DNA of 64,000 nucleotides, from the NCBI GenBank assembly GCA_965178125.1, contig OZ237738.1:186001-250000 (forward strand), in the 5' to 3' direction. The notes below the pieces were generated by a model. That model did no database searches, had not been told where the DNA came from, and saw nothing but the letters and a program-made list of their open reading frames with translations. Positions 1-64,000 of this stretch are shown in pieces; the first letter of the stretch is position 1; the number at the start of each line of letters is the position of its first letter. The position numbers and the translations under genes were made by a program. This DNA comes from Bilabrum cf. latius (Eukaryota).

Positions 1-3000
1 GCTGCTGAGCGCGCATGCCTGCCTCAAGCGCCTGTCGCAGCGAATCGGGAAGCAGGTGCGGCCTGCGCAGGGCGGTCTCATCGATGGGCGGCATCTGCGC
101 CTTGGACACGAGAACCTCCGGCAGGTACTGCAGGAAGGCATACTGCGCTACAAACTGCAGGGGGTGCCGCCGCAGGTCGGGCCGCCTCGAGTCCCCCCCC
201 GCGAGCGCAGTCCGGGCACGCGGGAAGAACGCGCTCCCGAACGCGCGTGCGGCGGCGGCGATCGGCGGTGTCAGCTGCAGCGCGCGGCCCGCGTCGTCAG
301 CGGCTCCGCCTCCGCCCCCACCAAGACCCCTGGGAGAGGGCACCAGCGGCTGCCTGCCCCTGATACCGTGCTCCTTGGCCGCAGCGACTGCAGAGGCCAC
401 CGCGCCCATGAGCCTGTACTGGCCCCCCCGGATGGCCCGCAGGAAGGAGGCCAGTGCGCTGCTGGGCACACCGTCCAGGAGATCTCTCCACGGTGCCACG
501 GGACTTGCCACCGCGAATGCTTTCGCCTCCCCGTGCCGCCCGCCTGCGGCAGAGGTGCTGCTCCTGCCCGTCCGGACGGAAGCTGCGGCGCCTCCACCCG
601 CCGCCCCCTAGCCCATACCTCCGTGCCTAAACGAAGACATGAAAGAGAGCTCGGTACGTGACTCGGACAGCCCGTCCACGTCGGCAGACATGGCAATGCG
701 GGCCGCCCTGGCCACCGCAGCGAAGGACGCGCGAGCGGCAGGGACCAGCGACACCGGCATGGCTTCCGCAAGGCACGGCAGCGATTCCTCTGGGGCATCG
801 AGGGAGATGGAGGGAGCCCCCCTCGACTCGTGGTAGGGCCGCTGCAGCCGGTCGGCCGAGGCCCCCGCCTGCGCGAGGTCAGCTTCCGCCATGAACCGCC
901 TCAGCATGTGGCACTCGAAGCTGGCCACCCCAAGGAGCGCGGACGCACGAGCCGCCTCTGACCGGAGCGCGCTAGCGAATTTGGCCGTTTGCGCAGGGGT
1001 TTGATCGTCTGCGGCGGTGCGGGGGGAGTGCATCTCGCTGCCGGGTGCCTTCCACGGCTCTGCTGCGGTGGCACTGCCCCTGCGGGACGGCGAGGATGGG
1101 TTGCTGGATGGGGCCGAGAGCCCCTCCTGCATGCGCACCATGCGCCTGGCGATGTTGTCCACCTCGGCAGAGGATCTCTGCAGCGAAAGAGCGATGCCAA
1201 CGCCCGCCGCCACCCCGCTCGCCGTCACGACAGCCACTGGGTACGAGTGGCCGCTGCCAGACTGCTCCCGCGCACAGGCCCGCATGCCGGCCGCCGCCCG
1301 CCGCACGCCCTCGCCGGGCTCGGGGTATCCCTCTGCCGCGGGGCTCGCCAGGGAGTCGGCGGTTGCGTCCAAGGCGGAGGAGGCGGCTCTCTTCCCGACG
1401 GCCGCAAACCCCGTCTCTCTCGCGAATGTGGCAAAGAAGGACGCCACTGCCTGCAGCGGGTGCACGATCACGGGGGGACGGGAGCTCGAGGCAGAGCTGC
1501 CGTCGCCGCGCCACCGCGCCCGCCGCCGCCGCCGCCGCCGCCTGCGGGCCGCGGGCGAGTCCTCAAACGCGTTGGGGTCCCCTGGCCTGGGCGCGCGCGC
1601 GGCCCCCGCGGCCTTCCCCACCAGGCTGCGCGTGAGGAGCTAGAGGTCCCTCGTCGGAATCGGATACTTGCGGCCCACGGGCTGCTGGCCCGGGCGCCTG
1701 GGTGCCTTGGACGGATCCACCCCGGGCGGGGGCTCCAGCTCGGACATGAGGCTGGGAAGCAGCCCAAAGTTGCTGGCCCTTGCGTGGCCGCGGGCCCGCC
1801 GCTCCTGGCCCACGGCCTGTCCCCACGCTTCCCTCGCTACGCACACGCGACGCTGGTCGTGCTCCGCAAATACGGCGGCCAGCATCACGGCCATTGCCTC
1901 CACGGGAATGAGGCTCGGGCTCGGCTGCTGCGTGGATCCGGGCCGTGCATCCGCCCTCCCCGGAATATTCCTGGACTGCCCATCACCACCACTGGATGGA
2001 TCAGACGAGGTCTGCTCCCCTTGACTCGACTCTCCGTGCCCGGCCCCGTTCGACCACTGCGAGGCCACGTCGCCCTCATGTCTCACCCACGCACGCAGCA
2101 GCAGCAGGCTCCGCTTGAAGAGGTGCGGCCGCAGCTTGGCAGGCCGCCTGCCGCCCCAAGCAGCACGACCGCCGCCGCCACCGCCCAGCGCTCCCTCCGG
2201 AGAGCCGGTCCCGGGAGCGCCCTGCGCCTGCATCGCACCTAGGAGGCGCTCCTCACGCCGCACCGAGGCCGCGTACCTCACCCTGGTCACCGCATCGATC
2301 TCCTTGTCGATAGCCTCGATCCAGCGCGCCATGGCCAGCGAGTGGTGGTCGTTCACGGATATCTTGCAGAGCACGTTGTCCACGATGCATCGCAGCACAG
2401 GGGCCTCCAGCGGCAGCGGCCGAAGCTCCTCCTCCTCATCGCTCAGGTCATCCAGCTCCAGGCCAAGAGTGTCCTCACCAAGCCCGCCCGCACACGACGC
2501 AGAGTCGCCAAGATCAGCCTGGCTCAGGAGGGTCGCGACCGGACCACGGCCACCCCCGCGCCCGCCCTTGCCGCCCTTATTTTTCTTATTTTTCTTCTTC
2601 TGTTTCTTGGACCCGGGCCCGCCGGCATCGTCCTCCTGGCCCTGTGCCGCCTTGACAAACCGCAGCCTCGAGTTCCTCCGCTCCACGATCTCGTGTCTCT
2701 GCCGCCGCAGAACAGCGGTCGCCCTGTCGACCCCGGCCAGGTCGAAGCTCACGTTGCGGATGGCGTAGTGACGCCCGTCCCTTCCGAACTGCCACGGGGG
2801 CAGCGAGGCAGGGCCGGTCGCGGACTGTGCGGCGCTCAGCTGCTCCTCACCCATCTCTGGGTCGGGCTAGTGCAGCTAGGCGTGAGACGTTGGGACTGCA
2901 CTACCGCCGTGCGCGCTGGAAGCCCCGAAGAAGTCCGAGCCGGTGACGGCGCTTCGTCCGTCCGTGCTGTCCTCACCCGGCAGCACGATCCACGGGTTGC

Positions 3001-6000
3001 TGATCACGGACCCCGCGAGATCACCCTGGCTGCCACCGAACTACGAGCCCCCGCCGCCGCCCGGCAGCACACCCGCGGCTAGCATCGCCCTCCGCTCCCT
3101 CCTCGCCAGCGCCTCTGAGGTTGTGGTGGAGGCTCGGTCATCCAGCGCCTGCGTCTGCCTGACGGCCTCTTCCACCCGCGACTCGGGGCGCACGTCCACG
3201 GCAGCGTCCTGCAGGGCAGCGAAGCGCATCTGCGCGGCCTCTCGCACAGTGAGTGTGATGGCATTGGAGGGTGACGGGGGTGGATTCGGAGCACCCGACT
3301 GCATTGGGATGATTGGGGGGCTGCTGTCAAGGAGCACGGCGGCAGCCGAGCCCGAGGGCTAGTGGGCCGTGGCGTTGGCTACTGGCCCGTCATATCCGTG
3401 CACCTGTCCCAAATCTTTGCCACGCTAGGCCACCGCTCCAGGCTGTCCCTGCGCCCCAGCAATAACCGCGCCTTGCGGGCGGGCCTGGGTCTACGTGGCA
3501 CCAGCGCTCGGCTTGGGCCCGCCACTCCTGACCTTGGAGTGCAGCGCCGAGACCTTGCACAGGGCCTCGTTGAGCTTCACCAGCCACGCCCCGCCAGCCT
3601 CCTCCACCTCGCTGATAATGACGGTGGCGGCGAGGGGCGAGTCGGGCAGGTAGGTCCTTGCGCACACCTCACCAACCATGATGGTCTCGGCAGCGATCGA
3701 GTCAGACACCAGCTGCTGCAAGAAGAGGCCGATGTCATCCCGCTTCTAATTGCTCGATGGGACGGGCTGCGCCGCCTCCACCACTCGAGCGGACTCCTCC
3801 AGCACAGCCCTCCACACGGCCTGCAGCTGTGACGACTGCGAGGCGGGCTGCGACGATGCGCCCTCGCCGTCCGCTGCCTCAGCCTCGCCCGAGGCCCGGG
3901 CCCCGACGGGGTCATCCGCATGGAACGAGGAGCTGAACCTAGTGCGAAGGGACTGCAGCCCGGTGCCACGGGCCTACCTCTCTCCCCGCGCGGCGGCACG
4001 GAACACGGCCAACTCGCCCTGCACGGCGCCCAGCTTGTCCGCCAGCCGCCTAAGCCGCCCCGCAGGCACCGTGTTGTCCGAGCTGCTCTTGCCGTCTCCA
4101 GACACGGACGCTGCTCCCGGCGCCTTCGCAAGCCGCCTGGCTTGCTGCGAGTACCACTTTCTGAGCGGAGCCCCGAAGATCCACCTCCGCACGGCAGATG
4201 CACTCCTGGCCTCGCTCTCGGCGAATGTGACGCCGGGAAGCACCACCAGCTCCGAGTCGGTGGTGGTCACGGTGCCCGTGCCGGTGACCTCACTGCCCGC
4301 CACAGAGAGCGCTGGGGGCACCGCGGAGGGATGGCCCGCGCCCACGAACAGATTTGGCGCCAGCTGGATGCCCCCCCCAGGCCCGGAGCCACCTCCGATG
4401 GTGAGGCTGCCTCTGCCAAACAGGCCGCCGCCATCCGAGGGCAGCACGCCGGGGGCAGCTCCTGTGAGGTGGGCCAACCCGCCCAAGGCCCCCGCGGCGC
4501 CCCCACTGCTGGAGGCGTCTTCCCTGCCCTATGCAGTGCCACTGCTTTCTCCTGCCCTCTGCAACCGGCGCTTGTGCTCCCGCTCGGCCACCGCCGCTGC
4601 AATCTCGTTGCTGCGGGCGGCTTCCGCCCCATACACGCCCGCGGCCTCTCCCGTCACGTCCATGCCGGCCTGCACGCCCGCGGGGTCCGTCCCCTGCCGG
4701 CCGTCGATGTCCCTGTCAAAAGCCTCCTGCTTCTCACCCGCCCCCCTCACCTCGCCGTCAGGGCCCACCAGCACGAGGCCCCCGCGCTGTCCCATGGCAA
4801 ACCTTCGGCCAGACTCCGTTGGGGCCGTGCGCGTGCTCGACGGACCACCATCTCCCTCCCTGGAGCTGCTCTCCGAGAAGTCCTGGCTGCGTCCTGCCTC
4901 GCTGCTGCCGCTTGCTCCCATGGACAGCAGCCCAGTCCCCTGTCCCTGGAACATGCCACCCGGGGTCGTCCTGACGCTGAACCCGGTCGCCACGCTGGCC
5001 CCGTCCTGGCTCGCGTGTTCCCCCGCGACCACACCCTGCTAGCCCATGCCAGGGAGCTGGCCTGCGTGCGGAGCAGCCGGCTCGCTAGGCGCAGGAGGGC
5101 TGGGGGCCTGGTGCTGTACTACGAAGGAGTGCCCGCGGGAAGGCGACGGGGAACCTGCGGAGGGCACGCCCGCCCCCTGGTCCGTCCAGTCCACGTCCTG
5201 CCACGACTTGTGGCCTCCTGGTGGCGCCCCGCCGCTTGCCACCGCGTCCCAGCCCCCGTCGGACTGCGAGGACGCCCACGGGTTCCCTTGCAGCCTGCCG
5301 TCCCCCGCGATCGAGTGCCGCCAGCTCACAATTGAGGCGGCGTCGCTTTCAGCATCGAACGCAACGGAAGCTCCTGAAGAGCCCTGACCCTGGAAGTTCG
5401 AGCCGGAGGCGCCCAGCCGCTGGCCCTGCGGGGCCGGGGCCACACTCATGGCCCGGCCAGCCTGAGGCAGCCCGCGTGTCCCACCATCGCTGCTGCTGTA
5501 CCCCTGCTGCTATTGCTGCTGCTGCTGCTGCTGCTGGTACCCTTCCAGCCCTAGACCAGGGGGAGTGGCCGTGGAGGTCTGCGACAGGCGGTGCTAGCCA
5601 CTACGCACTGCGAGCACACGCGCCGCGCGGCCCTGGCTCTGGCTCTGGCCCTGGCCCTGGCCACCGCTCTGGCTCGCGCCCGAGAAGGACTGCCCCGCCG
5701 CGAAGCTGCCCCGGCCTAGCTCAGGCATAACGTCGTCCAGCAGCCCAGTCGAAGAGCGCCGGCTGTCGAAACGCCGCCGGTCGTCCAACGGGTCCGGGGG
5801 CCCGGCAAGTCTCTCGGCAGAGGCCCGGCGCTCTGGGCTCGTGTCCGAGTCGCCGCCGCCCTCCATGCGGTGAGGCGGCCGCTCGCGAGGCAGCGCAGTT
5901 CCTGCACCCGGCCCGCCCACGCTCCCCTTGTCTACGCGCAGCTGCCAGTCAAGCACCTTCGCCAGCAGCTGCTTGTCCTCGGCAGCAGCAGCGGCCGCGT

Positions 6001-9000
6001 CGTCGTCCTCGCCGGACCCGCCAGAGGCAGCCCCCCCCTCATCTGCTCCGAGAGTGCGGCTTCCGATCGTGCCACTTGCTTGGGACGAGGGTGACACGGG
6101 CAGCGGCGGTGGTGCGTCCGAGCCAGCACTACCGGCGGCCGCACCGGCCTCTTCACCATCGCCTGCGCCCACGCCAGAGGCGCCGCCTTCGGTTGCGGCT
6201 CCCCGTTGCCGCACGCGAGGTGCGCTGCTGCCTCCTTCGCGAGACCCCGTCTCGAGGCCGGCGGGCAGCGCCACTGGGCCGTCCGCAGCCGTGTCCTGGG
6301 ACTGCAAAGGCGTCTCCGGCTCCTCCCCGCTGTGCCTCTGCCGGTGGCGCCTCCTCCTGCGCTTGGCGCTCGCAGAGAGTTCGCCGGGGGCAGACACCCT
6401 GGCCAGGTCGCTGCCGGGTCCCGTGCTTCCTTCGCTGCTGCGGTGGCTCCTCAGCACTGCGAGCGAGCGCACGAGCCCAGTGACTTCGCGCTTGCTGAGC
6501 GAGTCTCGCCGAGGGTCTGCCACGGCCACGCTCGCCGGATCTAGTTCCCCGTCGCCCTTGTCGTTGGCACCGCCCCGGGCGCTCTTTCCCTCACCGCCGC
6601 CCGCGGCTTGCTTGGAGCGAGGCTTGGCCTTGTCACTCCCCGAATCCCCGCTGCTGCCCTTCACAGGCCGCCCGCCAATCATGGCACCCTGTCTGCGGGA
6701 CGACCTCGACTTCCTGGCCGAGCTGTCGCTCGTGTCCGCCTCGGCGCTCGTGTCCTGGCTCACCTCCCGGGGCCCGCGCTGCCCCCGCGGCTGCTGCCTC
6801 GCCAGCAACCGCAGGATCTGGCCCATTCTCACGCGGAGCCCCTCCAGCTCCTTTTGCGTCTGCATGAACTGAAGCACGTCAGCGGATGGCGGTTCCTGCC
6901 CCCGAGACCGCACCGCATCGTGCCTCCTCGATGTGGTCTCCACGGTCCGAGAAAGAGCACTCTGCAGTCGGATGGTGCGGGCGAGTGCCGCCTGCCAAGC
7001 CAGCGTGCGCTTCCTGTCGTCCAAGAAGTGCACCAGCTCGTCGCACCTCCAGGCCTCCTTGCGCCTGCATACCATCCTGATGTAGTCCTCCAGATGCTTC
7101 CTCCTCTCCTCGCTGACGTCCACGCCAGCCATCTGCATGAGGCCCTGCATCAGCCGAACGTCTGGGAATCGGGGCAGCTCGGCACCGGCGGTGCAGGCAG
7201 CCAGCAAGCATCGATGCAGAGCCTGGAACTCCCGGTACCTCCGCTGCACCAGCCACGTACGCAGCCCGCTCGTAACCCGCACCAGGTACACCACGTGGTC
7301 TCGGCGCCTACCGTATCCCACGATGGCCACCTGCACCGGACACGATAGCTGCGGCTGCTGCAGCTGCTGGCGAGCAGCCTGCAGCGCTACCTCTGCGGAG
7401 GGCATGGTGCTTCCTTGCCCGCGCCCCTGTCCTTGCCCCAGCTCGCGCCTGGCTTGCTGCTGGTGTTGCGAGTGGCCTGAGGGGTTGCCGTCTGGCATCA
7501 GTCCTATCACACTGTGGCGGTCGTCACCACGCCTAGATCCGCGGCCGGGCTGCTGCTGCTGCTGCTGCTGGCCCCAGCCCCCCGTGCCTGCATCAGTGCT
7601 CCACGGCTTTGCTCGCGAGGACACTCCTATCTGCCCCTACCCCCTGACACGCCCGTGCTCGCCCGCCATCATGCTGCCTCTGCTGGCTGCTGGGGGCTCC
7701 GTGTGAGGGGCCAGCACGCCGTGCCCCTGCCTGTGGTCGAAGCCCTCGGAGAAGCTGCGTGCCTGTGGCTGCAGATTAGTGGGTCTCGCCGGGGTCACGA
7801 CGGCTCGCTGTCCTGGCTGATAGTGCTGCTGCTGTCCTATGTGCTCTCCCCGGCTAAGGTCTGGCCGCAAGTGCTGCTGGGGATGCTGGGGGTGCTCCCC
7901 GCCCACCACGCTCCCGCTTGCCAGGCTGCTGCCGTCCACCGAGGCGGCACCGCCGAAGGACCCAAGCAGCTGCTGCAGCTCAGAGCTAGCCCAATCTCCC
8001 TGCCCCGCCGCGCCCACCGCCTGCTGCATGGCAAGTGCCCCATCGGCGCCGGCCAGCGTGGCCACGAGACTTCCCCGCGCCTCCCGCGGCGGGGCAGGCA
8101 TCGTCTCGCGGCCCCTCTGGCCTCTTCCTCCTCCTCCGTCGCTGCCCGCCAGCCCGAGCATCGCAAACGCTTTGCTGTAGCCCCCAGACCCGCTGTTCCC
8201 TGGCCGACCGCTCCCCCCATGACCCCCCTCGTTCATCGTTTCATGACCCCCGTCGTCCTCCCTGATCGCCTCCATCTGGCTCACCGACCGCCGGCCCAGG
8301 CCACTGCCAGTGCTGCCACCGGACCCCCTGTGCACCCGGGGCGCCGCTCCAGCGCCGCCGCTCCCACCGGCACCCGCACCTGCACCGACGCTGCTGCTAG
8401 TTCTCGGCGATAACCCCGAGGATGCGGCCATCGGCTGGCCGGCGTGGTGTGACGAGCGCTGCACCTGCCCCCCGCTGTGCCTCCGACGGACGCCCAGGTC
8501 TGGTCCACGGGGAGACAGGTTGGACACGCCGTGGGGCCCGCTGCCCGCCATGCCGTCAGAGGTGCTGTGGCTCCTCCGAGGGGGGGGCGCCTCGTGGGGG
8601 TGCCTCGGGTCCCTTCCGCGCGAGCCACGCCCCGCCTCCCGTCCGGAGGACCCCCCGCTGAAGCTCGCCCTCGTCCTCGCACCGGTGCCAGACCCACTGC
8701 TGCTGCCAGTGCCCGCGCCCATGCCCGCGCCTGCGGGGTGCTGCAGGCCAGGCGGCGGGCCCAGCGAGTGTGGCGAGTGAGACACCCCGTACCCTCCACC
8801 CCCACTCCCACGGGGCTGGCCCACCCGGGAGCCCCGGAGCGGCGTACCTCCAACTGCACCAGAGTGCAATGCACCTCCTCCTCCGGTAACCCCGCCCGCT
8901 CTTGCCCTATGCCGCACGGACGCGCCCTGCTTGCCGGCAGTGTAAGCCCGGCGCCTCTGCTCCTCCCTCTCCTGATCCGATGCCAGTGACCCTGACGCCG

Positions 9001-9809
9001 CGATCCTGCCTGCAGAAATACCCTCCTGCAGCTCTCTGTCCGAGGGCTGGGGCCTTAGGGCTCCCTGCTGGGCCCGGTGCGGGCGCGGGCCGCCACCCAG
9101 CATCCCCGGCGGGATTGAATACGTGCTAGCCCCTCTCTTGCGCCCTGGATTGGCATGCCCTGTCCTTGGCACTGATAATGAAGATGATGGTGGCGGCAGT
9201 TCGCTGCCTCGCCGGCCACCGTGTGGGCTGCCGGGCCTTCCCGAGCCGGGCGACGGATTCTCCCCAATTCCGAGGAGCATCATTGCCTTGCTTCGAGAGG
9301 GTCTTCTGGCGCGGTCCGCATCTACTTCTGAGTCGGATGATCCGTCACCCATTGAGTCCAAACTGTCCATTCTAGCTCGAGCGCCGCTCCCAGACACACC
9401 GCCTTGTGATGCGTGGCGCATTCCAACAGGCGTACGCCCGGTTACCTCAGGCGCCTACAAGGGGGGAAAAAGGCGGCAAATGTATTGCGTTCAATATTAG
9501 GGAAGTTACTGTGGAGAAAATACACTTTTTGTCGGATGCAGCGTCAGCATTCATAGGTTGGGCTTTGTCTTGATGTTATGCGACCAGTTGCATCCTAAAG
9601 GCATGTCGCGAACCAAACAACACAACGGTGCTACTAGTTGGCCAGTAATAGCATTTTAATCAAGGATAGGGGGCAACCGGCACGACCGGATCCCATTGTA
9701 GCAGCATGGAACGGTGACGTGCTGCTTGGATCGGACTCACGACCGCACTAGAATTGCTGCCTTCAGCTGAGCCGTTGTTGCCTTGAGGCCCATCAGAGCT
9801 TCCTTGCAT
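1..9809 (-). CDS. Giant (>3100 aa, 3' end outside window) PX-domain + nucleotidyltransferase-fold (PAP/OAS1-substrate-binding type) protein; exons 9809-9741 and 9454-<1
   Basis: Nine track ORFs (7637..9421, 5594..7624, 5039..5449, 4529..5032, 3974..4486, 3491..3721, 3041..3337, 1640..2854, 608..1621) share one frame and are separated only by TAG (about 15). PX motif HVVYLVRV..WLVQRRYREFQALH..FP..EERRKHLEDYI at about 7330-7010. NTase-like motifs RTYLPD, LRCIVDNVLCKISVN, HLFKRSLLLLRAW, HPLQAVASFFATFA. Phase-0 GTGAGT..TTGTAG intron 9740-9455; first exon less certain. Confidence 0.8.
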
Positions 9810-10703
9810 ACTGATCTACTCCCAGTCGCAGAACTCCCAAATCGGGGCTGCTAATGCTCCCCAAGCCGTTTCGGCTGCAGAGCCGAAGCAGGCGGTGCAC
9901 TACCATGCACTGCACATACAGTCACGCAGACAATAATCGCCCGAATCCGCGTAGTACGTTGCCCCCGTGTTTCCAGAGGCCGGACCATCTCCCCTGTCCT
10001 GCAGCGGCAAACACCAGAACCGTGTAACATGCCCACGGGCCTGGCGGCCAGTGGTGGGGCCGGTAGTACCCTGCCCTGCCAGCCCCTGGCAGACATACGG
10101 AGTCCCAGCTCGCGGCGAGCCCGCTGCACGCGCTGGCGGGCCGCCTCAATCGACACAGAGACGCGCATGAAAGCCTGCACCTAGAAGATCCTGTCTACTG
10201 CCATACTACCTGCGCCGGCTGGCGGGGCGCCCCCGCCGCGGTGATGGAGGCCCCTCTCGACCATATGCGGGATGCAGGCCATCGGTAGCAGTCTTGCTCG
10301 CCCTGTACGCGTTGCATGACCAGCCACTGCCATCGTCACAAGGGTTGAGCTCTACCGAGGGTGTGCTGCTGCTGCTGCATCCCAAAGCGGTAGCAGCGGC
10401 ATGCCAGTGGGGTGAGTGGCTCATGTCGCACCCCATTCCACCGCTTGATTCAGTATCGGGTGCAGTTAGTTAACGTGGCGAGCTCCGGACGGCAGTTGGT
10501 CCGGGTTGTTGGCAGGATTAAAACAATACGCTACAACTCAGAAACCAGATGCAGACGTGGCACGGCAACTGCAACATCCTATGATCGCTCGCACTTCTCG
10601 ACGGACTCTACTTGTTGCACTTTCAACCTTAGTTGCATACAGAGCACCTTAGACATTTGCTGCAGCGTCGTGTGCTGGCAGCAAAATCCAGTCTAGTACT
10701 TTT

Positions 10704-11612
10704 ATGGGATCGGCCGCCTCAAGCTCACACACGCGAGACCTTGAAGGAGGGAAAATCATGGCATCTGCTAGCGATACAAAAGAAGTATCTGCCTCCGGTT
10801 ATTCAATTCGGCGCCTGACCAAGGAAGAGATCGCCGACGCCGAGAAAGACTTGACTGCTACAGAGAGGCATATCCTGCTCGAGCATGGCACTGGTGAGGT
10901 CCCGTCATCGCGCTGAAGACCATATTGTGCTTTCTGCGTGTATCGGCTGTTCCCACTTCGTTGCGAGCATGTCACCACGATTCAACTCCACCATGACGCG
11001 TCAAGTTGGCACCGCAGAGCGAGCGTTTACAGGGCCTCTTTACACGGAGAAACGGAAGGGAACCTACGTGTGTGCTCTTGGTGGCCTCCCCCTGTTCTCA
11101 AGCGAGGCAAAGTTTGAATCTGGCAGCGGCTGGCCCAGTTTCTTCCAGCCAATCGACCCCGACCACGTGGTCGAGGTTCGCGACAGCTCCTTCGGCATGG
11201 TCAGGGTCGAGGTCCTCGATGCCCGGACTGGAGCTCACCTGGGGCATGGTGAGATCCAATTCTAGATCTAGATTTACGCTCGTGCAGCGTGCCGCCTCTG
11301 CGAGCTGGGGGACTTCCGTGCAGCAATCTCAGCATTCCCCCGACGGTGCTTCTGTATTAGCCCTCCCCCCCCCCCCGCTACCCATGCCTCTTGCTCTTGC
11401 CGCGCGCAGTGTTCGAAGATGGCCCAAAGCCCACAGGATTACGGTACTGCATCAACAGTGCGGCCCTGAGGTTCATCCCGGAGGGGGACCCCGTGCCCGC
11501 CCAGTCACAGAAAGACCCGTCTTTCGTGGCGGCCCAGGCCGGGGCAGGCAAGGGGGAGGAGGCTAAGGGAGAGGCCAAGGTGGAGGTGAAGGCAGGGGGG
11601 GAGACTTCTTGA
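10704..11612 (+). CDS. msrB: Peptide methionine-R-sulfoxide reductase MsrB; exons 10704-10893, 11018-11248, 11410-11612
   Basis: Spliced product has [40 protein letters not shown]. Two GT-AG introns restore the motifs exactly; ends TGA. Confidence 0.95.
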
Positions 11613-49588: not shown

Positions 49589-49730
49589 ACTTGCTCAAGC
49601 TCTTGTTGCTTTTAGTCAATCATCGCTCAGGAGGCCTTGGAAGTGCAAAATGGCGTCGCGTTGCAGTTGCGACCGCCGCCGCCAACGGCTCGTTGGGTGC
49701 GACCTCCAGCAATCCATTGCAAATATCGCA

Positions 49731-52700: not shown

Positions 52701-55700
52701 CGTCGCCCCGGCGTGCTAGCCCTGGAAAGTGACTCGAGCGAGGACGGAGCCGCTGACGGCGCTGACTCCACGCGGTCAGAGAACAGCCCCTCCAGGGCCC
52801 TCCGTAGGGTGGTGACCCGCGAGCGCTGGATGAATGCAGGGGTGAGTTTACTGGCGCAGGTAGACGGAGGAGGGCAGTCCGCGATGCGGCTCGCGGCGCG
52901 CGGTACGCGGAAGCGCAGAGCGGCGTCTTCCTCGCCCCGTCCTACCAGGGACACGCTCCACCTGGATCTGCAGGGCGTTTCTAGCACCAAGGCGGCGGAC
53001 CAGCGGCTCGCCCGCGCCATTGAAGCCCGAATCGGCGCGCAGGGAAGCAGGCGCGGGTCCATGGATGGCACCAGATCAGCGCCTTGGCGCCGCATGATGG
53101 CGCGCCGGCAATCCGTGGAGGCCACTGATCCAGAGTTGGCAGCACGTACCGCAGCGCAGGCCGCCCAGGCCGCCAAACAGGCCGAGCAGGACAGGCTAGA
53201 AGCACAGCGGCGCTAGCAGGAAACTATGGCAAATGCCTCACCCGTGCGCAGAGCCGCCAGTCGGGCAGACATGCGCTCGCCGGCTGAATCGCAGTCGCCC
53301 ATGAAGCGCGGAGATAGGGTGCATTGGGGCTCTAGCGTGCAGAATAGCGCCCGAGGCTCACCGCCGGGTGCCAAGTCCCCTGAAGGCAGCGCCAAGCTGG
53401 AGGGAGGGAGCGGCAGCATCCGCACCAAGTCGCTCTTCGAGAAGGAGGGCGTGGGCCTATCAACGCTCAAGTCGCACCTGGCCAGCATCCCATCTTCAGT
53501 CGCCAAGGACATCGCAGAGGGTGGATCGTCCAAGGGTGCTGCGGAGCCCGGTGAGACAGCCGTGGTCCAGGTTCCATCAAAATCCAGCTCACGGCGGAGC
53601 GGAGACCCCGAGAGCAAGTTCTTTGATAAAGTGAGCTCCACCATGGACAAGCTGAGGGCGAGTCGGCTGGCGCTGGAGCACAAGCTCCGGGTGGTGGACC
53701 CTAAACTATTGGCTAACGAGGTGGCCGATGTGGTCACCGCCGGGCGGCCTTCTAAAGCCCACAATTAGCAAGGCGAGCGAGGGAAGGCAGGGGCGGCTGC
53801 AGCTGCCGCCGAACAGGAGCAGAGGCGCAAGCAGAAACTGTTTGTGGATGCCACGGCAGAGGCTGTGCAGGCCCGCGCTCTCGCGAGCATCGGCCTCTTC
53901 CGCACTGACCGGGAGCGAGAGATCCGCAAGTTGGCCCAGATGATGAAGCAGATCCGGGCCAGCAAGCAGAGCCTGGATTTCTCGGCACGAGGTGCAATGT
54001 AGCTGGGTGAGATCATGGGCCAGAGCTCTTCTGTGCACCCGGGGGCTGCAAATGGTGGGCTGTCCGCGGTGGCGTCTGTGAGTGGGTCGGCGGCACAGAG
54101 GTCCCTGGGCTCGAAGGGGTCCAGGCAGCAGTCTGCGAGCGGCAGCGCGGCCAGCTCCGACGAGGACTCGGACGCTCCGGACACGGAGTACTCGGGGGGT
54201 GCGGCTGGGCTGCTGGCCTCGCATGCCGAAGGCGGTGCTGCAGCGCCCCGCAGGCGGGGAAGCAAGCTGTCTGGAGGCGCTCGTCGATCGTCGACCAGCT
54301 TCCGAGAGGCGGCCTACCTTGACGTGGGCGACGGCAAGCGGCTCAGTGTGGTGCGGGAGGCCCTACGGCCCAAAGCTCGCCGCCAGAGCGTCCTGTCCAT
54401 TGAATCCAGCGACACCGATGCGCACTCAGTGCAGCTGAGCGATGGCTCCATCGTCTCGGAGCAGCGGAGCCTGCATGAACATCGGGGTCGGCTCAGCTCG
54501 AAAGGCAACGGCCACCGCGGAGGAGGACGCTCCAAGTTCGGGAGCAGATCCTCTTCTAAGACGTCCTTCTCGAGCGACTAGGACGAGTCTGCACCCGGCG
54601 ACATGTCAAGAAAGTACAAGGAGCACTTGGACGAATCGCTGAAACGGCCCATGAGCGGCCTCCGCCGCCTACCGAGCAGCCACCGAGGCTTTTCCGAGGA
54701 AGCCCGCAGAACGGCGCTCATGGACGTGAATGATGCGCGGAGAGACTTGCACAAGGCAATTACCAAGAAGCTTCGCGACCACGAGAAGCGTTTGGCCGAA
54801 ATTCGCGGGCTAAACGAGGACGCCGTGGCCCTTGTGGACGTCGGCTCGGACGACGAGGGAGTGGGTCGGTTCGAGGGTGGTGACCCGGTGCGAGCGACTC
54901 GCCTAGAGTTGCGGTACGATGGCGACGAGGCGATTGAGGCAGTGCTCAGGAACACCTTCAAGGGAAAGCAAGCGCAGGCGGGTGGGGGGGCGCGCGGTGC
55001 AGACCGGCTGTCCGAGACATCGACAGGTCGATCAGGCGGCCAGACAGGGTCGTCCTTTGTGGTGCAGAAGGCGTCTGCTGGCGGCTCTGCCAAGCGGCCG
55101 GACAAGCCCACCGCGGCCGTCGGGACTCCAAAGTCTCCTGAGCGACGTGGCATGGTCCCGGGCGACAAGGGCGCGAATCAGACGGCCATCCCACTTGCGT
55201 CTCCGCTTGGGCCCCCGGCCGTCGGGTCTTCTGCCGGTGCCCAGGCGCCTACTTCGTCGACTGCGATCGTGCCGCACGCAAGCAAGACGCGCGAACAGAA
55301 TCAGTCGCAAGACGAACAATCCGCGCCTCAGTCCGGCGAGCCTACCGCCAGGCTGGCCCATTTCTCAAGCGGAGGAGGGCACGCTCTGGGTATCCTGTCC
55401 GGCGGTGTGCTTGTGGCGCAGGGTTGTGGGTAGGACGGGCAGCACGGGACTGGCGATCGCTTGGACGCTCCCGCCCCGCGGCTTGTCGTGCCCCTCTGCC
55501 GCACGCCCATCGTAAAGGTGGCGGCTGGCGGTCGGCACAGCGTGGTAGTGGCTGCGGATGGCGTGGCGTTTGCGTTCGGGTGTGATGAGTGCGGATGCTG
55601 CGGCTTCGGTCCGCTGCCCTGGTCCCGCGCGAGCAGGGCGGAAGCTGCCTTCAAGGGGTCTGCCACGGCGGCCGCTGCGGCAGCCGCCAGGGCGGCCGTG

Positions 55701-58007
55701 TCCGCTGGCTTGCACGGCGCTGCTTCGTCCTCCTCCGCCGCAATTCTCAGGGCTTCAAGGCCCGTCCCTGGGATGTGCATCACCACGCCCATGCCCATCT
55801 TGTCTCTTAGGGACGCGGGCGAGCGCGTGACCCACGCAGCATGCGGCGATGACTTCACCTTGCTACTCACCGCGAGGCAGCGGGTGTACGCCTGCGGAAG
55901 GGGTGACTCGGGGCAGCTTGGGGTGGGCAAACCGGCCTCCATGGACGAAGACGCCGAGGGAACCGGGCCCGGCGTGGCGGTTGTCAAGTCGCAGCAGTCG
56001 CCCAGAGGTGCGCATGGCCGGGCGCCGCCGCTGGGCTCCCACGTGGTGGGCCCGTGGTGCCTGCGCAGCCCCACTCGGGTCCGTGGACTCGACGAGAGGG
56101 GCGTGTTTTCTCTGGATGCGGGTGCCAAGCACTCGGTGGCTCTGGGGGAGGGAGGCCGCACGGTGTTTGTGTGGGGTTCGAGAGACGAGGGGCGGTGTGG
56201 GGAACCGCTGCCCCTGGGCGCCAGCAAGGAGCAGGACCCCACCCCGGCGCAGGTGGCCCGGAGCGCCATGGCGGCTCGCAAGCTGGAACCAGGGGAGCAC
56301 AGGGGTGGGCTCATGGTCCCGCACCGGCTGGATACACGCGGCCTGAGGGTGCAGCTGGAGCTCCACATGGCTCTGCAGAATGGGGCCTCCATCGACGACC
56401 TCAAGAAACGGGCCGGCTCTGCAGCGGAACAGGCGGCTTCGGCACCCTCGGCCACGGGTGGCGGGTCCAGCGGCTCCTTCTCTGGAGCGAGCCGGCGAGG
56501 GGGCAGACAGAGCGCGTTCTATGGGCAGCTCACGAAGCGAGGGTCTCTCGTCGACATGCTGCGGGCTGGAACCGCCTAGGATGCTCCGTCCAGTGATGAC
56601 ACGCCCCGGGGTTTGGCCGGAGGATTCGGTCGGCTGTCTGATCCGGCCGATGAGGTGCCTACACTGGCTACCGGCACCCTCCTTCGGCACGTGGAGGCGG
56701 GAGGCAGACACACGGCGCTTCTGTCGGAGCACGGAGACATCTTCATGTTCGGGAGCAACTCGGACGGTCAGCTCCTGCTCACACCAGAGGACGTGGAGGT
56801 GGCCGTGCTGGCGGATGCACTGATTGGAGACCACGATCGGAGGTAGCACGCGGCGTCGGAAGCACGGGCCCGCGCGAACCTGGAGCGAGCCAGGAGACGC
56901 AAGGGCAAGGAGAAGGGGTTCGCTGTGGCCGCTGCCCGCAGGAGAACTCCGGGCGAGAAGATGATCTTGGAGGCTCGGAAGAAAGCAGGAGTGGTCATCG
57001 TGAAGAAGAGAGGCAAGCGGAAGCGACGCAAGAAGAGAGAGGAGAGCACCGGCCAGGAGCAGGGTGCGCCAGGAGCCCCGCGGCCGAGGCTCGGTCGGCG
57101 AGGCAGAGCCAGGGACCCAAAGGTCTCCGAGATCGATGTGTCTCCGGCTGCCATGGCCGCGAGGCGGCGGAAGCAGCTGCTGCGACAGAGCGGGAAAGGG
57201 GTGATCGCTATCCCCACGATGGCGGGCACGTTCGCGCGGATCAAGCAGCGAGCCGCGTGGGTGTCGCTGGGCGAGAACCACAGCATGGTCGTGTCCGAGG
57301 ATGGCCTGGCGTTCGCGGGGGGCGCCGAGGAGCTGGGCGCGACTGGGATCGAGAATGCCACGGGTGCGGCTGCTCCCAGGCGGCAAGGGGTCGTGGGGGG
57401 CAGCCTGGCCGCTAGCAGCTTCGGCGCGGCGGGCGACGGCACTTCGGTGCTCGGCTCCGTTGCTGGCGCGCATTCGGTGGTTCTAGCCGGCGGCAGTAGC
57501 AGCGTCGCGGCGCGTCGGATGCCAGTGCCGGGCGACCTCACGGGGCTGCGGCCTGCGCGTGGTTTAGCCGGCGGGTCGGCGTACTCTGGGAGTCTCTCCG
57601 GTATGAGCAGCAGCAGCAGCAGTCCGAGGCGGCCTGCTAGCGCCGTACCTCGCGGTCCACGCGCCCCATCGCCTCGCTCACGGCCGATGAGCGCCGCGCC
57701 GAGTGCCTCTCGCCGACGCGTTGTGGCTGGTGCTACCGGTGGAGATGCTGCAGCGGCCGCCACTGCTGTCAAAGAGTACACCTGGAAAGAGCTGCAGAGC
57801 TCCTCCAAGTATCTCGTGGGCCCGCAGCCTGTCAAGAGGCTGCTGGGACACCGCGTGCTCGACGCATCTGCGGGCCGTGGGTTCACCCTGGTGCTCACAG
57901 ACGCCCCGCACGACCAGCCGGATGAGGAGCTGAGGCAGCGGCAGGCAGAGGTCCTTGCGGAGCTGCAGCTGCTGAGGATGGAAGCTGGGCTCACAGTAAG
58001 GCGGTGA
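49731..58007 (+). CDS. Giant (about 2750 aa) RCC1-repeat protein with an N-terminal Calx-beta/cadherin-like beta-sandwich
   Basis: Eleven track ORFs in one frame joined by about 13 TAGs; ends TGA 58005-58007. RCC1 blades VAAGGRHS, AACGDDFT..GRGDSGQLG, LDAGAKHS, VEAGGRHT..FGSNSDGQL, VSLGENHS, ASAGRGFT. Start could be ATG 49650. Confidence 0.8.
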
Positions 58008-58151: not shown

Positions 58152-59627
58152 TCAGTCCCAGCTGCTCCAAGGGATGCGCGTGAACATTGTCACGCATGAG
58201 GCTCCGCTGCAGTCCCCTGCAGATGTCTCCCAGAGCAACCCCAGCCCAGACGATTTCGGCTCGGCCGCGATCGACCCACCAGTGCTGCCCCCTGTGCCAG
58301 CGCCAGTCTCGAATGTCTCCGTCAGGCACGAGTACGCGTAGTCCACGGCCTCCCCGCTGATTGGCAGGGAGCTGCCCCAGTCGTGCCCGCCGCTAGTGGA
58401 CCGCTTGACCGTGCCGTTCACGCGCCCGGCCGTGGTGGAAGGGTTCGCGAAGTAGGCCGCCCCCGGAGACTGGCCACCCACAGCGTTGATGAGCGTGGCC
58501 TGGCAGACGGGCGACTCGAGCTGGGGAACAAAAGTGACGGGCCCGAAGGACGCGCCCCCGTCCGTGCTCCTGGCTTCTGCCCTGCAGTCGCACGCGTTGA
58601 TGTGGTTATTCCTCATGTTCGCCACGACCTCCATGGCAGGCGTGGAGGTGTCCACGTACAGGAGGGCTTCATCCATGTGCTCCAGGCTAGAGTTGGACAC
58701 GCTGTAGGTCTGCCCGCCGTCGTCCGAGTACCACACGAAGTCCTCAACGTAAGCGCCGTGGTGTCCGATGAACAGCAGCCGGCCAGGCGCCACTGGGTGA
58801 TCGTCCGGCAACGTGAGCCCGGTGCCCGGGCCAACGTCCGAGCCGGCGGCCGTGCCCAGCTGCTTGCTGATGTCCACGGGCGCCGTCCACGACTTGCCGG
58901 CGTCATAGGACTCCAACTGGATGCTCTGGCCCGGTCCAATACCTCCACCTGTGCTCCCCGCCGAGCAAGTCACTCCCTGGAGGAAAACAGTGCCATTCGG
59001 CCTAGAGCTGGACGGAGGTGCGACAGTCACCGTCGGCTGGAGCGCACACTCGGCGATCGTGACCAGGTCGGACCATGTTGCACCGCTGTCGTCGGAGATC
59101 TTGTAGCACATGTCGCGCTCGTCTGACATCGGCGACTCGTCCTTTGCGTGATGATGCGAGTCGAGCGGGACACACCCATCCCCCACCCAATACCTGCACT
59201 CCGCAAATGCCAACAGCCGCCCAGGGAGCCATGAAACGGACGTGATTGCCGGTATCCGGATGCAAGGATACGTAATATTGTTGTTTATTGCTGTTTCTCC
59301 GTGTGAAAATACAGAAAAGGTGTCGACCATGCCTCGCTTGCACCGATCCAAGATTCCAGCTATTTGCGTTGGCCTCGTGCAATAATCCTTCCCACCAACG
59401 TAATGAGAGTGGGTGGGGTCCAGCGTAGACTCTGCATAGCACCTCCACTGATGCGGACCGTGCTCAGCGTTCGTGTCATTCAATGCGTAGAGCTTGCCCG
59501 AATGCTTAATGGGGCAGGTGAATGCCATGTTGCACCAAGCAGTGGCGGCAGCTGTGCATGCGTCGTCGCCTGCGACACTGTATACAGCTGCTCCTAAAAG
59601 CACGCACGTTGGGAGTAAAAGACGCAT
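58152..59627 (-). CDS. Secreted BNR/Asp-box sialidase (GH33-like), 491 aa, intronless
   Basis: Signal peptide MRLLLPTCVLLGAAVYSVAG, RIP motif (CIRIPAI), five Asp-boxes (SDDSGATW, SYDAGKSW, SDDGGQTY, STDGGASF, STSGGHDW), candidate catalytic MDE, NMR, GRVN, YAYS; ends TGA. Confidence 0.88.
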   Translation of the reverse strand: MRLLLPTCVLLGAAVYSVAGDDACTAAATAWCNMAFTCPIKHSGKLYALNDTNAEHGPHQWRCYAESTLDPTHSHYVGGKDYCTRPTQIAGILDRCKRGMVDTFSVFSHGETAINNNITYPCIRIPAITSVSWLPGRLLAFAECRYWVGDGCVPLDSHHHAKDESPMSDERDMCYKISDDSGATWSDLVTIAECALQPTVTVAPPSSSRPNGTVFLQGVTCSAGSTGGGIGPGQSIQLESYDAGKSWTAPVDISKQLGTAAGSDVGPGTGLTLPDDHPVAPGRLLFIGHHGAYVEDFVWYSDDGGQTYSVSNSSLEHMDEALLYVDTSTPAMEVVANMRNNHINACDCRAEARSTDGGASFGPVTFVPQLESPVCQATLINAVGGQSPGAAYFANPSTTAGRVNGTVKRSTSGGHDWGSSLPISGEAVDYAYSCLTETFETGAGTGGSTGGSIAAEPKSSGLGLLWETSAGDCSGASCVTMFTRIPWSSWD

Positions 59628-59763
59628 TTTCGGAAGCAGCTTGCAGTGACGCAAAAGACGGGACTCCGTCACGGGAGGACTGGGGTGGACTCCGGTTGCA
59701 ACCACATCGTAATGATGAAGGACAATGATATTGATGTCGCGGCCTTGGGCCGAATCAATAAAC

Positions 59764-61088
59764 TCAGTTGTCCACATCTTCGACGCCGTCGCCGCCGGCT
59801 CCCTCGCCATCGCCGCCATCGCTGGTCCACAGCGTCAAGTTATCCCTGATCAGCTGCATAATGAGCGTGGCATCCTTGTACTGCTCCTCCTCCAGAGTGT
59901 CGAGGTCAGCAATAGCACTATCGAAGGCGCTCTTTGCGAGCTGGCACGCCTTCTGGGGCTCGCCCAAAATTTCGTAGTAGAAGACACTGTAGTTCAAAGC
60001 CAGGCCAAGGCGGATGGGGTTGGTGCTGGGCAGGCCCCTCTCGTCCGCAGTCTTGGAGGCATCGTCGTACTTTTTCCTGGCCTCCTCGGCGCGCTTGGTC
60101 TTCTCGTCACCGGAGGCAAACTCGGCCAGATATCGGTGGTAATCGCCGGCCATCTTTAGGTAGAACACCTTGCCCTCGGGGCTCTCCGTGCTGGGCAGCA
60201 ACGAGTCATCCAGCACATCCAGCAGCTCTTTGCAGATGTCTCCGAGCTCAGTCTCGACCTTCTCCTTGTACGCCTTGATCCACCCCACCTTCTCGGTGCT
60301 CTCCTGGTCGCCCTTGGACTGCTCCTTCTGCTCGATCGATGTCAGCACGCGCCACGACGCTCGGCGTGCGCCCACGATGTTCTGCGATGGTACAGTGAGA
60401 ATCATAAGTGGGATGCAAGTAGCTTGAAGGAGACTCGCGTGGCTTCATCCAGGCACGAACACTGGTAATTCTGAATCTTGCCCCCCCCCCCACTTGAGAG
60501 CCTCGACGATTGCGACCGCGGCTCGATCCGTTTCAAAACTAACCTTGTAAGCAACTGCAGAGACAATTAACAGGAAAAAATAATTGAAAGAAGGCGTGCA
60601 GAGTTGTGGGGGGTAAACAACAAGCTGCTGCTTCAGTTAACGGATCTTCAAAATACGGACCCAGACCGATAGTGGCTCACCTGACAAGAGGTTCCTCTCC
60701 TCCACGGTAAGCTCAACCTTCAGCTCTGCCAAAGCCTTCACGCTCTTAACCTGCGGAGTTGATCGGACAGCAAAAATCCAGTAGGGCGCGTGTCGGTTCC
60801 ACTTGGAACGCATGGTCTCCACGAGGCAGTCACGCGTCGAAAGCTCCACTTTCTCACCATGTCATCGTACCTCTCAGCTTCCTGCGGCACAAAATACGGT
60901 AGAACGGAAGATAGCGACGGTGCGTGCAAATCGCAAGGGCTCGTTCCAGATGGAGGCCGTTTGATGTCTGTCGGATCGATGGCCGCTGGGGTCGCGAATG
61001 CGTCTTTCTGGCAATTGAAACTCACTTCAGCCAACTTGGATTCGTACACAAGACGACGGCGCTCAGCAGGGGTCTTCGCAGAAGCCAT
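59764..61088 (-). CDS. 14-3-3 protein; exons 61088-61026, 60881-60858, 60750-60681, 60554-60544, 60381-59764
   Basis: Spliced [67 protein letters not shown]. Four GT-AG introns; ends TGA. Confidence 0.96.
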
Positions 61089-61876
61089 TTTACTTTGATT
61101 TGCGAATACTTAGTGCGATTGGCGAGCGACACCTTTCGTCGATCTTTGCGCGGCGATTCCGAGACAAACAATTATACGGAACCTTTCAGTCCGGCCAAAG
61201 ACTAACAACACCAGAGTTATAGCCGCGAAACTGCTGTTTATCCTCGCGGGGGCTCTTTCGGGCCTGCTTCTGCACGTAAAAACAGCATGGAACATGTATC
61301 ATCATGCGACCCGACGGCGCCAGGGTTTGGTCGCATAACGCAGCACGCACTATATATAATTTCGAATCTCTGTATGCCTCAGACACACCATTTTCGCAAG
61401 CATATAGTATACCATGCACTGCCGCCCCCGGCAGACTCTAGGCCTTACTTTTGTTGACCAGATGAGCACGACCAGCCATGACCGAGAAGTTGGTCGCAAA
61501 ACGAGGTCGGTCATCATTGACTCATAATCTTGTAGAATTAGCAGCTCTCGTAGGAATCAGATCAATATTCTTACATTAAACAAGTCAGGTGCAGAGCCTC
61601 AATTAGTTTGCTGGCATCGAGTACGGCCCAGCACCCAGGTTGCGTCGATACAAGCCTGCAATTCAACCTTGCGTATTTCTTGCAATCAAGCGAGTACTGC
61701 ATCCAAATTTCTAGAAGAGTGGAATTGTACGCTGAGGTCGATCGAAGAACAGGGCATTCGCTTCGTTCTTGGCATTCTGTCGAAGGGGGCGCTGGATCCG
61801 GTAGAACTGTCAGCCAACCAGCAACCAGTTTGTCTTTTATCAGTAGCAGGGCCCAATAGTTTAGAAGCTGTGAGTG

Positions 61877-64000
61877 ATGCCTTCATTGAAGTCTTCGACT
61901 GGAAGCCAGGGCTCATCTAGGGATAGCAGGCGTAAGGGCCAGTCTTCGAGCAGACCGAAGTCGGCATCTCGGAGGGTTCGGGGGCCGTATCACAAAGCGT
62001 GCGCGCCGTGCGCGAAAGCTAAGCGTCAATGTGATGGCGATAGACCGTGTGCCCGATGCGTCCAGCGCAATCATGCGCATTTGTGCATTGACAGCGTCGA
62101 CAAGCGCAGCAAGTCATCAAAGCCGAACAGCTCGTAGAGCTCCGCTCGGTCTAGTACCCACAAAGTTGCTGCACCGCCAAAGCAACGATCAAGCGATTTG
62201 AGTCTTGAGCTTGCTGATCCGGTGGCTGGCTATCCAAGGCCGCCCCCTGGGGGTGGGGTATGGGGCCAGGTGGGCGGGCAAGCCAGTGCCGGGCCCCGCC
62301 CACAACCGCTCGTGATGCCGCCTGGAGGCACGCCAGGTGGAATACCGTACCTGGGTAACTCTCCGGGATCGGGAATTGCTGGTGGGCTAGTGAGGCGGGG
62401 CCAGAGCGGCGGCTCTCCCCTAGGTCGTGGCGCATCAGCCGAGGCCTCCACAGCTGGCGCGCATAATCGAGGTGGGTTTGGTGCTTCTGGCTCTGGCACT
62501 GGCAGGGCCGCGCTGGCCAGCGGGTACAGTGGGGAGATACGAGCTAGCTCTGGACGATAGGGGGGCGGCCGGAAGAGTCTTGCTGGCTAGGCAGTGTTAT
62601 CCAACGTGTACCAGGCCCGGCCACCGCTTGACACGTCGGCAGGATCTGCAGTCGATCCCGGGTCTTTCTCTGGGTCCAGCTTGGCTCTTGATAGGTCGGT
62701 GCTTCCCCCCTCTGGTCCTGGTTAGATGGACATGCAGCGTGGCTCATTAGGCGCTAGTTCTCGCAGCTTCGGAGCCGGGAGTGCGACTGATGCAGACCTG
62801 TTTGCGGAGTCTGCACCGGCGCAACAGCACTCAATGGCGGGGCGGGGTGGCCATAGGGCGAGCGCGGCGTCCTCCTAGCCTGTTTAGCAGTTCTCATCCG
62901 CATCTGGTACTCGTGGCACTCCGCAGGCAGCCCATTAGTCTGCTGCAGGCATGCCGATGGGCGCTGGACTGGGACTAGGGACCAGCTCAGCCGGTGCAGG
63001 AATGGAGAGGTTCCCCAGAGCGACCGCTCCGCCCTTCGCGGTGCCTTCCGGGGCGCAGTTTGTCGCAGGTGTGAGGGAGGTGTCCGCGTCTGACAGTAGC
63101 CGGAGCATTTCTGAGAGCAGAGAGATCGAAACGATGCTGCCACCGGCGCGACAGGACAGCAATACCAGCGGACAGTTTCCACTGCTCACGGTGCCGCCGT
63201 CTAGCTCGGCAGCTGCAAGACAGCAGTTGCCACCTGTCCGACCGCTGATGGTAGTTTCATCAGGTGGAAAACAGATCAGGGGCCCAGCGTACCGGCAAGG
63301 CGCGCAGGCAGGCGCCAGCAGCAGCGCCAGCAGCAGCAGTAGTGGTGCTGGGAGTGCTCTGGCGCAGGCGGGGCAAGGTTTGCTGCAGCAGAGCTTCAAT
63401 CGAGGCGGTCCAGGGCAGAATCCTCCCACGATGCAGGCCGTGCAGCAGAGAATGGGAGGTAGCAGTGACAGCCTGCCGCTGGGAAGCTCCAAGAACCGGG
63501 CTGAGCCGTCGCAGGAGAGGGGGGCCATCTACAGCGGGGCAGTAGCAGGGCAAAATGCCTTCCAGAGCGTGACATCTGCGGGCAGCATGTCCATGTTTTC
63601 ATCTGGATAGACGGGTAGGCAAGCTCCGAATCAGAATCAGGGGCAGACCCTGGGCCAAGGGGATGGCCAGGGCATGGGTTCACCTGGAGCCGCGGGTGCT
63701 CGACCAGCGCAGCCAAGCGGCATGTTCTCATCGGGGGGTACCCATGGGCCGCAAGCAACTGCCATGTTTTCGTCCGGCGGGACGGCGGAACAAAGCGGGA
63801 TGTTTGAGTCTGGTCAGAGCGTACCAAGGGGCGGGGCTAGCTTGTTTTCATCTGCCGGTTCCGCCCCGCAGGGGCAACAGACGCGATGGGCGAACAGTCG
63901 AGGCGGTACTGGCCCCAGCCAGTCACAGGGCGGCCCGCCAGCCACTGCCCAGCTGATGGATGACAAGGGAAACGTGCGGTTCCAGCTTCCTCTGCGGCGG
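61877..64000 (+). CDS. Zn(II)2Cys6 binuclear-cluster transcription factor-like protein (3' end outside window)
   Basis: ACAPCAKAKRQCDGDRPCARCVQRNHAHLC at about 61997-62086. The frame continues through about 8 TAGs to the window end without TAA or TGA. Confidence 0.85.

Follow-up and report, generated by a model that had tools for sequence, protein, structure and literature searches.

Results

The window and its genes

This work concerns the meaning of the codon TAG (UAG in RNA) in the protein genes of a stretch of protist DNA, contig OZ237738.1, positions 186,001 to 250,000. We refer to this whole stretch of 64,000 nucleotides as the window, and positions are counted from its first letter. 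The G+C content of the window is 64% overall (58-70% across 4-kb windows). We counted 15 genes in it, which were identified by searches of Pfam and the PDB, apart from MsrB, a name given by eye from the translation. Frames and gene ends were delimited with TAG read through. The genes are the following.

2-9490, reverse strand: giant PX-domain gene frame, 3163 codons, 16 TAG, running past the window edge
10700-11612, forward strand: MsrB-like gene, TGA end, no exonic TAG seen
11784-20327, forward strand: giant kinesin gene frame (Pfam Kinesin, 1e-83), 2847 codons, 21 TAG, TAA end (20325-20327)
21008-24514, forward strand: 1168-codon frame, no Pfam family, 7 TAG, TAA end
24625-25941, reverse strand: GDT1/TMEM165-family transporter gene with EF-hand, 4 in-frame TAG, TGA end
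about 25437-25587, reverse strand: predicted intron of the GDT1 gene, containing 1 of its 4 TAG
26235-29234, reverse strand: DUF3626-domain gene, 8 TAG, TGA end
29313-38789, reverse strand: giant CHAT/STAND-NTPase-like gene frame, 3158 codons, 30 TAG, TGA end
39381-41691, reverse strand: gene for F-actin capping protein beta (CapZ-beta) with a PAPE-repeat tail, 1 TAG
42077-43408, forward strand: mRNA of pyruvate dehydrogenase (PDH) E1-beta (PDHB), intron 42200-42299, stop TGA 43224-43226, poly-A at 43408
43454-44824, reverse strand: glyoxalase II (HAGH) gene frame, 7 TAG, TGA end
44825-49338, reverse strand: TTLL (tubulin polyglutamylase-like) gene, 4 exonic TAG, TGA end
49449-58007, forward strand: giant RCC1-repeat gene frame, 2852 codons, 13 TAG, TGA end
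58152-59834, reverse strand: BNR/sialidase-like gene, no TAG, TGA end
59764-61109, reverse strand: 14-3-3 gene, two exons seen, no TAG, TGA end
61874-64000, forward strand: gene with a weak Zn2Cys6 match, 8 TAG, running past the window edge

TAG occurs in frame in 12 of the 15 genes (all except those for the MsrB-like, BNR and 14-3-3 proteins), and the Pfam domains are intact across the TAG-bearing genes. The first-pass annotation, made from the letters of the window, had put this at 13 of 16 genes. The wide spread of in-frame TAG holds on recounting; the exact numbers do not.

Stop codons within the genes

With the standard code, no stop-to-stop frame of the window exceeds 990 amino acids. 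Reading through TAG yields four frames of 2847-3163 codons, the longest spanning 9,489 bases, in agreement with the earlier statement that frames stay free of TAA and TGA for up to 9.4 kb. Across 13 gene frames, which together comprise 18,568 codons, there are 121 TAGs and neither a TAA nor a TGA. The two off-frames of the same 13 stretches hold 654 TAA and TGA codons, so that about 327 would be expected per frame. At least three of the 121 TAGs are intronic (two in the TTLL intron at 48607-48737 and one in the predicted GDT1 intron), and some of those near frame starts may lie in 5′ untranslated regions. The hand count of the first-pass annotation, about 110-120 in-frame TAGs, was thus a fair one, and its central claim, that TAG is a sense codon in these genes, is well supported by the total absence of the other two stops.

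This absence also speaks to the suggestion that the TAGs mark decayed genes or errors. Decay or error would yield TAA and TGA along with TAG, and none was found where about 327 were expected; decay is excluded because both codons are wholly absent in frame. Nor do the genes resemble pseudogenes, as housekeeping genes such as that for PDH E1-beta are otherwise intact, the latter being 79-81% identical to the public proteins P0003, P0004 and P0005.

TAG in RNA-derived and independent contigs

Parts of the region 39400-49300 are present in 12 public runs from seven studies. These runs are dated 2019-2025, the eight with the largest shares being from 2025, and they are labelled as at least four different organisms, among which the sequence is near-identical. 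Such a range of labels would suit a flagellate living in the cultures of other organisms, and the organism may be a widespread culture associate.

We compared positions 29301-49300 with four runs (X5, X6, X7 and X8) from three further studies and found no differing letter and no insertion or deletion, X7 and X8 being read only over the parts that their contigs cover. Three of the runs (X5, X7 and X8, from two of the studies) contain contigs that lack GT..AG introns. The PDHB intron (42200-42299) is spliced out in all three of these runs, and both CapZ-beta introns (40994-41102 and 41237-41337) and the TTLL intron (48607-48737) are likewise absent from spliced contigs. A contig of X7 joins 42077-42199 to 42300-43408 and then runs into a poly-A tail. 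Because introns are missing and a poly-A tail is present, we take these contigs to derive from processed mRNA. An unspliced, DNA-type contig in X6, from the third study, covers 40258-46436 and is identical to the window.

The intron-less contigs cover six exonic TAGs, of which PDH E1-beta has two and TTLL four, and all six are unchanged. Editing of U to C and errors of assembly, both raised in the first-pass annotation, are therefore excluded at the six covered sites: the spliced and polyadenylated contigs retain TAG, and the runs of other studies show the same letters. That the TAGs are an artefact, or are corrected before translation (by assembly or sequencing error, RNA editing, pseudogenes or low-level read-through), is accordingly very hard to believe. 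Nothing positive favours it, and what can be said on its side is that the comparison with RNA-derived contigs covers six of the roughly 118 exonic TAGs; against it stand four runs without a differing letter over 20 kb and the retention of TAG after splicing. We conclude that TAG is a sense codon, because it is frequent in frame in real genes and persists in spliced, polyadenylated RNA-derived contigs.

The amino acid encoded by TAG

The sites that bear on the identity of the residue are these.

42495-42497, forward strand: PDH E1-beta TAG in MQAID-TAG-IVNSAAK, kept in X7 record 19 and X8 record 24
42116-42118, forward strand: PDH E1-beta exon 1 TAG in the N-terminal presequence region, unchanged in X7 record 19 and X8 record 24
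49138-49140, reverse strand: TTLL exon TAG in NPY-TAG-KVNHFPG, unchanged in X8 record 27
25153-25155, reverse strand: GDT1 TAG in FFGI-TAG-LLRE
13467-13469, forward strand: kinesin motor TAG in VF-TAG-LL, a variable position
5510-5512, reverse strand: TAG in a polyglutamine run, QQQQQQQQ-TAG-QQ, of the giant PX-domain protein

Two of these positions are strongly conserved. The residue of human PDHB that aligns with the TAG at 42495 is Q (E-value 6e-132), 104 of 119 homologues have Q in this column and the other 15 have H, and the 96-97% identical relatives P0002, P0121 and P0122 have Q. The TTLL site at 49138 aligns to Q in five of five alignments, which represent two distinct proteins (SYQKINHFPG in four constructs of TTLL6 and NYQRINHFPG in TTLL7). 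Glutamine is, on these alignments, the sole residue compatible with both sites. At the GDT1 site the closest relative, P0151 (73% identical by BLASTP and 84% over aligned columns), reads FFGIQLLREAP, and Q is also found in P0167 from Cafeteria.

We summed log-odds over five deep columns, each down-weighted to 20 effective sequences. Glutamine scored +4.47 bits, arginine +0.33 and lysine -0.25, and the other residues were negative; the TTLL site would add further to Q. Glutamine, the meaning proposed in the first-pass annotation, is thus the best supported by PDHB, TTLL, the closest GDT1 relative and the log-odds. The four positions quoted there (42495, 49138, 13467 and 25153) are exact. Those in PDHB and TTLL are conserved glutamine positions; those in kinesin and GDT1 are not.

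A number of points weigh against a glutamine code, or narrow what supports it. Most of the weight for glutamine comes from just two strongly conserved sites, those in PDHB and TTLL. Among 120 GDT1 matches the column holds K 77, R 38, Q 3, V 1 and one gap, so that K or R make up 115 of 119 residues family-wide. At HAGH position 52 (EAY-TAG-ILEDNY) the homologues have P in 64 and Q in 1 of 85, and we treat this TAG as exonic because there is no intron signal there. The kinesin site at 13467 is K in CENP-E and a second TTLL site is N in TTLL6, both being variable and uninformative; the same applies to HAGH position 294 (A 29, E 22 and Q 18 of 137) and to the highly variable HAGH position 86. The run label 'RNA' is a guess, the RNA origin of the contigs being inferred from the missing introns and one poly-A tail. 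Finally, the 64-kb window contains no tRNA gene by ARAGORN and no match to Rfam.

We also considered whether the HAGH-52 TAG could be the 3′ end of an intron. This was rejected, as no donor-like GTGAG lies upstream and the confirmed acceptors end in CAG. Four TAGs lie within about 55 codons of the presequence-like N-terminal region of HAGH (44500-44660, reverse strand), two of them in a near-repeated R-TAG-CTG-GCA-GCC unit.

The GDT1 column, HAGH-52 and the kinesin site are what favours the view that UAG is sense but denotes another residue (Lys, Arg, Glu, Leu, Tyr or Ser). However, K, R, E, L, Y, S and P are all absent from the PDHB column and from the TTLL site, near-identical relatives have Q, and the summed log-odds place Q 4 bits over R. 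A related view is that the code is mixed or ambiguous, with UAG an amino acid inside genes and a stop near the 3′ ends of mRNAs, as in Condylostoma, karyorelicts and Blastocrithidia. It bears on the gene ends, treated below; we regard these two views, taken together, as improbable.

Gene ends and the remaining stop codons

Thirteen genes finish inside the window, 11 of them at TGA and two at TAA. The kinesin gene has a second in-frame TAA 15 codons past its TAA stop. The TGA stop of PDHB coincides with the end of its homologues in the alignment; GDT1, HAGH and 14-3-3 also end at TGA, PDHB alone having had its end checked against homologues. UAA and UGA are kept as terminators, UGA as the main one and UAA as a minor one.

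TAG is needed as a terminator by none of the 13 genes, the frames having been set with TAG read through. Since the gene ends were set in this way, UAG may also have a context-dependent role as a terminator, which counts in favour of an ambiguous code and against a purely coding one. The end of PDHB at a TGA, where its homologues end, argues for the latter.

The Gln-type codons of the 13 frames comprise 121 TAG, 622 CAG and 171 CAA, so that TAG makes up 13.2% of the three together and 6.5 per 1000 codons. Were TAA also a glutamine codon, used at the CAA:CAG ratio of 171:622, about 33 in-frame TAAs would be expected, and there are none. A code of the table 6 type, with UAA and UAG both read as glutamine, was rejected on this ground and because TAA ends 2 of the 13 genes.

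It is therefore very probable that the window comes from a GC-rich protist with a nuclear code in which UAG encodes glutamine and UGA and UAA are stops, the pattern of NCBI table 15.

Public gene calls and relatives

Protein databases hold what appear to be broken copies of the genes in the window. P0123 (99% identical) starts at the Met that comes first downstream of the PDHB TAG, and P0152 (98%) starts just past the GDT1 TAG. At HAGH position 294, P0275 (99%) stops one residue short of the TAG and P0271 (94%) starts just past it. All four are gene calls broken at TAGs, and they come from this organism or from sister organisms. A collection of 5.8 billion proteins, restricted to proteins 0.55-1.75 times the length of the query, contained no full-length, correctly translated PDHB or GDT1. 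Six short gene-call fragments matched the RCC1 giant, of which two were relevant and neither spanned a TAG site. A scan of genome contigs with the 14-3-3 protein returned one distant match only. The best E-value to PDHB (4.9e-208) was that of P0001, a 529-residue metagenome protein with only 66% identity at 87% cover. Members of the family are normally much shorter, and P0001 may be a fusion, or a gene call that has read through a stop.

A scan of metagenomes with PDHB found at least 80 loci, the best 75% identical among the matches listed, and in-frame stops were present in 15 of the 80 listed. In-frame TAA or TAG is seen in L048, L054, L066, L069, L071, L078 and L079, which are 64-71% identical. 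TAA aligns to Q in L066, L069, L078 and L079, and one TAG aligns to K (L048). These stop-bearing loci presumably belong to other recoded protists and are unrelated to the code of the window.

Placement of the organism

Among named sequences, the closest homologues of PDHB and GDT1 come mostly from stramenopiles and not from ciliates. For PDHB they are from Cafeteria, diatoms, chrysophytes and Albugo, and for GDT1 from Cafeteria, diatoms, Ectocarpus, Nannochloropsis and Aplanochytrium. The PDHB of Cafeteria is 77% identical to that of the window. A tree of PDHB, a single gene with most rows unnamed, puts the window in a group of 10 rows that has a support of 90 in the SH-like approximate likelihood-ratio test (SH-aLRT). 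The group includes Cafeteria, a EukProt transcript and a protein deposited with a Symbiodinium assembly, the last of which may be a contaminant. A FastTree of GDT1, again a single gene, joins the window and P0151 to Cafeteria in a group of 10 rows (support 92). Our best guess from these comparisons is a heterotrophic stramenopile near the bicosoecids. A mitochondrial PDH complex is ill-suited to the anaerobic fornicate Iotanema, and the G+C content of 64%, the GT..AG introns of about 100-165 nucleotides and the length of the genes are unlike those of ciliates.

Proteins filed under Symbiodinium assemblies (P0004 and P0165) are among the closest named matches. One CAE-series accession, which we take to come from a Symbiodinium assembly, has a sequence identical to a Cafeteria protein. 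This suggests that heterotrophic flagellates contaminate Symbiodinium assemblies.

Other features of the window

The four giant frames are apparently free of introns and mostly of low complexity (rich in A, G, S and R), each with one small recognizable domain: PX, kinesin motor, CHAT/AAA or RCC1. In the CHAT gene, at 37305-37971, the contig depth, when summed, rises abruptly to 531-741 in X5, X7 and X8 and to 18 in X6, and many loose contig ends lie at 37616-37647. The jump looks like cross-matching of a short low-complexity stretch and not like a property of the gene.

The C-terminal tail of CapZ-beta (39381-40330, reverse strand) consists of long PAPEPA-type repeats. Positions 39799-40257 and 40414-40462 were skipped as repeats in the comparison of contigs, several of which stop there; the length of the repeat may be mis-assembled or variable. 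The BNR/sialidase-like protein has an apparent signal peptide, and in Protein Atlas it lies nearest to clusters of sialidases from animals and bacteria (score 0.91). Protein Atlas confirmed the family identities of the 14-3-3 and BNR proteins but gave no taxonomic information of use.

A giant virus was considered as the source of the window and ruled out by its spliceosomal introns, a poly-A mRNA and housekeeping genes with presequences.

Discussion

Nuclear changes that part UAG from UAA are very rare and known from a handful of lineages, according to the accessible part of PMC11687900. The same part of that work (December 2024) gives Iotanema, Protocruzia tuzeti and two phyllopharyngean ciliate lineages as the cases in which UAG alone became glutamine. 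In Iotanema, as the accessible text of PMC5304391 describes it, UAG is glutamine, UAA is a stop and UAG makes up about 8% of the Gln codons; the proposed decoder is a tRNA-Gln(CUA) that is one base from CUG. Iotanema spirale therefore resembles the window in that UAG supplies a minority of the Gln codons, about 8% against about 13% in the window, and UAA is kept as a stop. It differs in being an anaerobic metamonad, whereas the window carries a gene for a mitochondrial PDH E1-beta and shows a weak grouping with stramenopiles. Protocruzia tuzeti and the two phyllopharyngean lineages share the table 15 pattern with the window, UAG being glutamine and UAA and UGA stops, as far as the accessible part of PMC11687900 goes. 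In contrast to these ciliates, the window has 64% G+C, introns of about 100-165 nucleotides, genes of up to about 9.5 kb and its nearest named homologues in stramenopiles.

Other codes are more distant. Glutamine has captured both UAA and UAG (UAR; table 6) in many ciliates, ulvophyte algae, Hexamita, Streblomastix and Amoeboaphelidium, as listed in the accessible part of PMC11687900. Here too a stop is captured by glutamine, but TAA is not sense in the window. The further UAG-only changes named in the accessible parts of PMC11687900 and PMC5304391 are to leucine in the rhizarian exLh and to serine in Scotinosphaera; in these, as here, the meanings of UAG and UAA are uncoupled, but leucine and serine are absent at the PDHB and TTLL sites. 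Cafeteria, a bicosoecid, is the nearest named relative in both gene trees and is likewise GC-rich: the available portion of the report on C. roenbergensis/burkhardae (bioRxiv 10.1101/751586) gives about 70% for its nuclear genome. Cafeteria is unlike the window in that this portion describes a non-standard code for the mitochondrion only, and in a PDHB that differs at the level given above.

The pattern of table 15 is itself known. The novelty seems to lie in the lineage, from which an independent origin would follow. We found no nuclear UAG reassignment in a stramenopile, nor a further GC-rich non-ciliate case, in the open full-text literature to late 2026, a body of text that leaves subscription journals and supplements outside. 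It remains rather unlikely, yet well within reason, that the code is real but belongs to a lineage in which UAG as glutamine has already been described. The placement of the organism is weak, and with run dates of 2019-2025, the main ones being 2025, a description is perhaps in press or in a closed journal. On the other side are the lack of such a report, the short list of UAG-only glutamine cases in the accessible part of PMC11687900, and the public proteins for PDHB and GDT1, which are only TAG-broken calls with none of full length.

A position near the bicosoecids would make an origin independent of the known lineages with UAG as glutamine probable, and we think it probably an independent origin that is so far unreported. 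The first-pass annotation had proposed as much: its proposal is plausible, given the literature and the grouping with stramenopiles, and falls short of proof, the placement being weak. A more specific claim is that a UAG-only-to-glutamine code has here been found for the first time in a stramenopile, and for the first time in a GC-rich lineage of free-living heterotrophic flagellates, and that it arose independently of Iotanema and the ciliates. This claim has in our estimate slightly less than an even chance of being right.

How might such a code work? By analogy with other lineages, UAG would be decoded by a tRNA-Gln(CUA). A single base separates this anticodon from CUG, the one that pairs with CAG, the predominant Gln codon here. 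The release factor eRF1 would be weakened or lost for UAG, with its recognition of UAA and UGA kept. Transitions between CAG and TAG (C-to-T and T-to-C) would then be synonymous and free to drift. We propose that TAG is scattered over conserved domains, disordered regions and polyglutamine because such changes are synonymous. Pressure towards G+C in a genome of this kind should disfavour TAG.

The finding has some practical consequences. Standard gene callers truncate the proteins of this organism in the databases, as P0123, P0152, P0271 and P0275 illustrate, and recognizing the code is needed both for annotation and for interpreting the contamination of other assemblies. As the sequence is present in several public runs, including RNA-derived contigs, the organism is possibly obtainable for tests of its eRF1 and tRNAs. 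According to the accessible part of the GVMAGs V2 paper (PMC13524828), the confirmed giant virus isolates are all from hosts with the standard code. If our reading is true, this protist may be a candidate host type for giant viruses written in a code with TAG as glutamine.

More broadly, if the reading is true, the window would add a new and independent data point on the capture of stop codons, in a GC-rich, intron-bearing stramenopile whose CAG-rich genome is paired with a set of terminators dominated by UGA.

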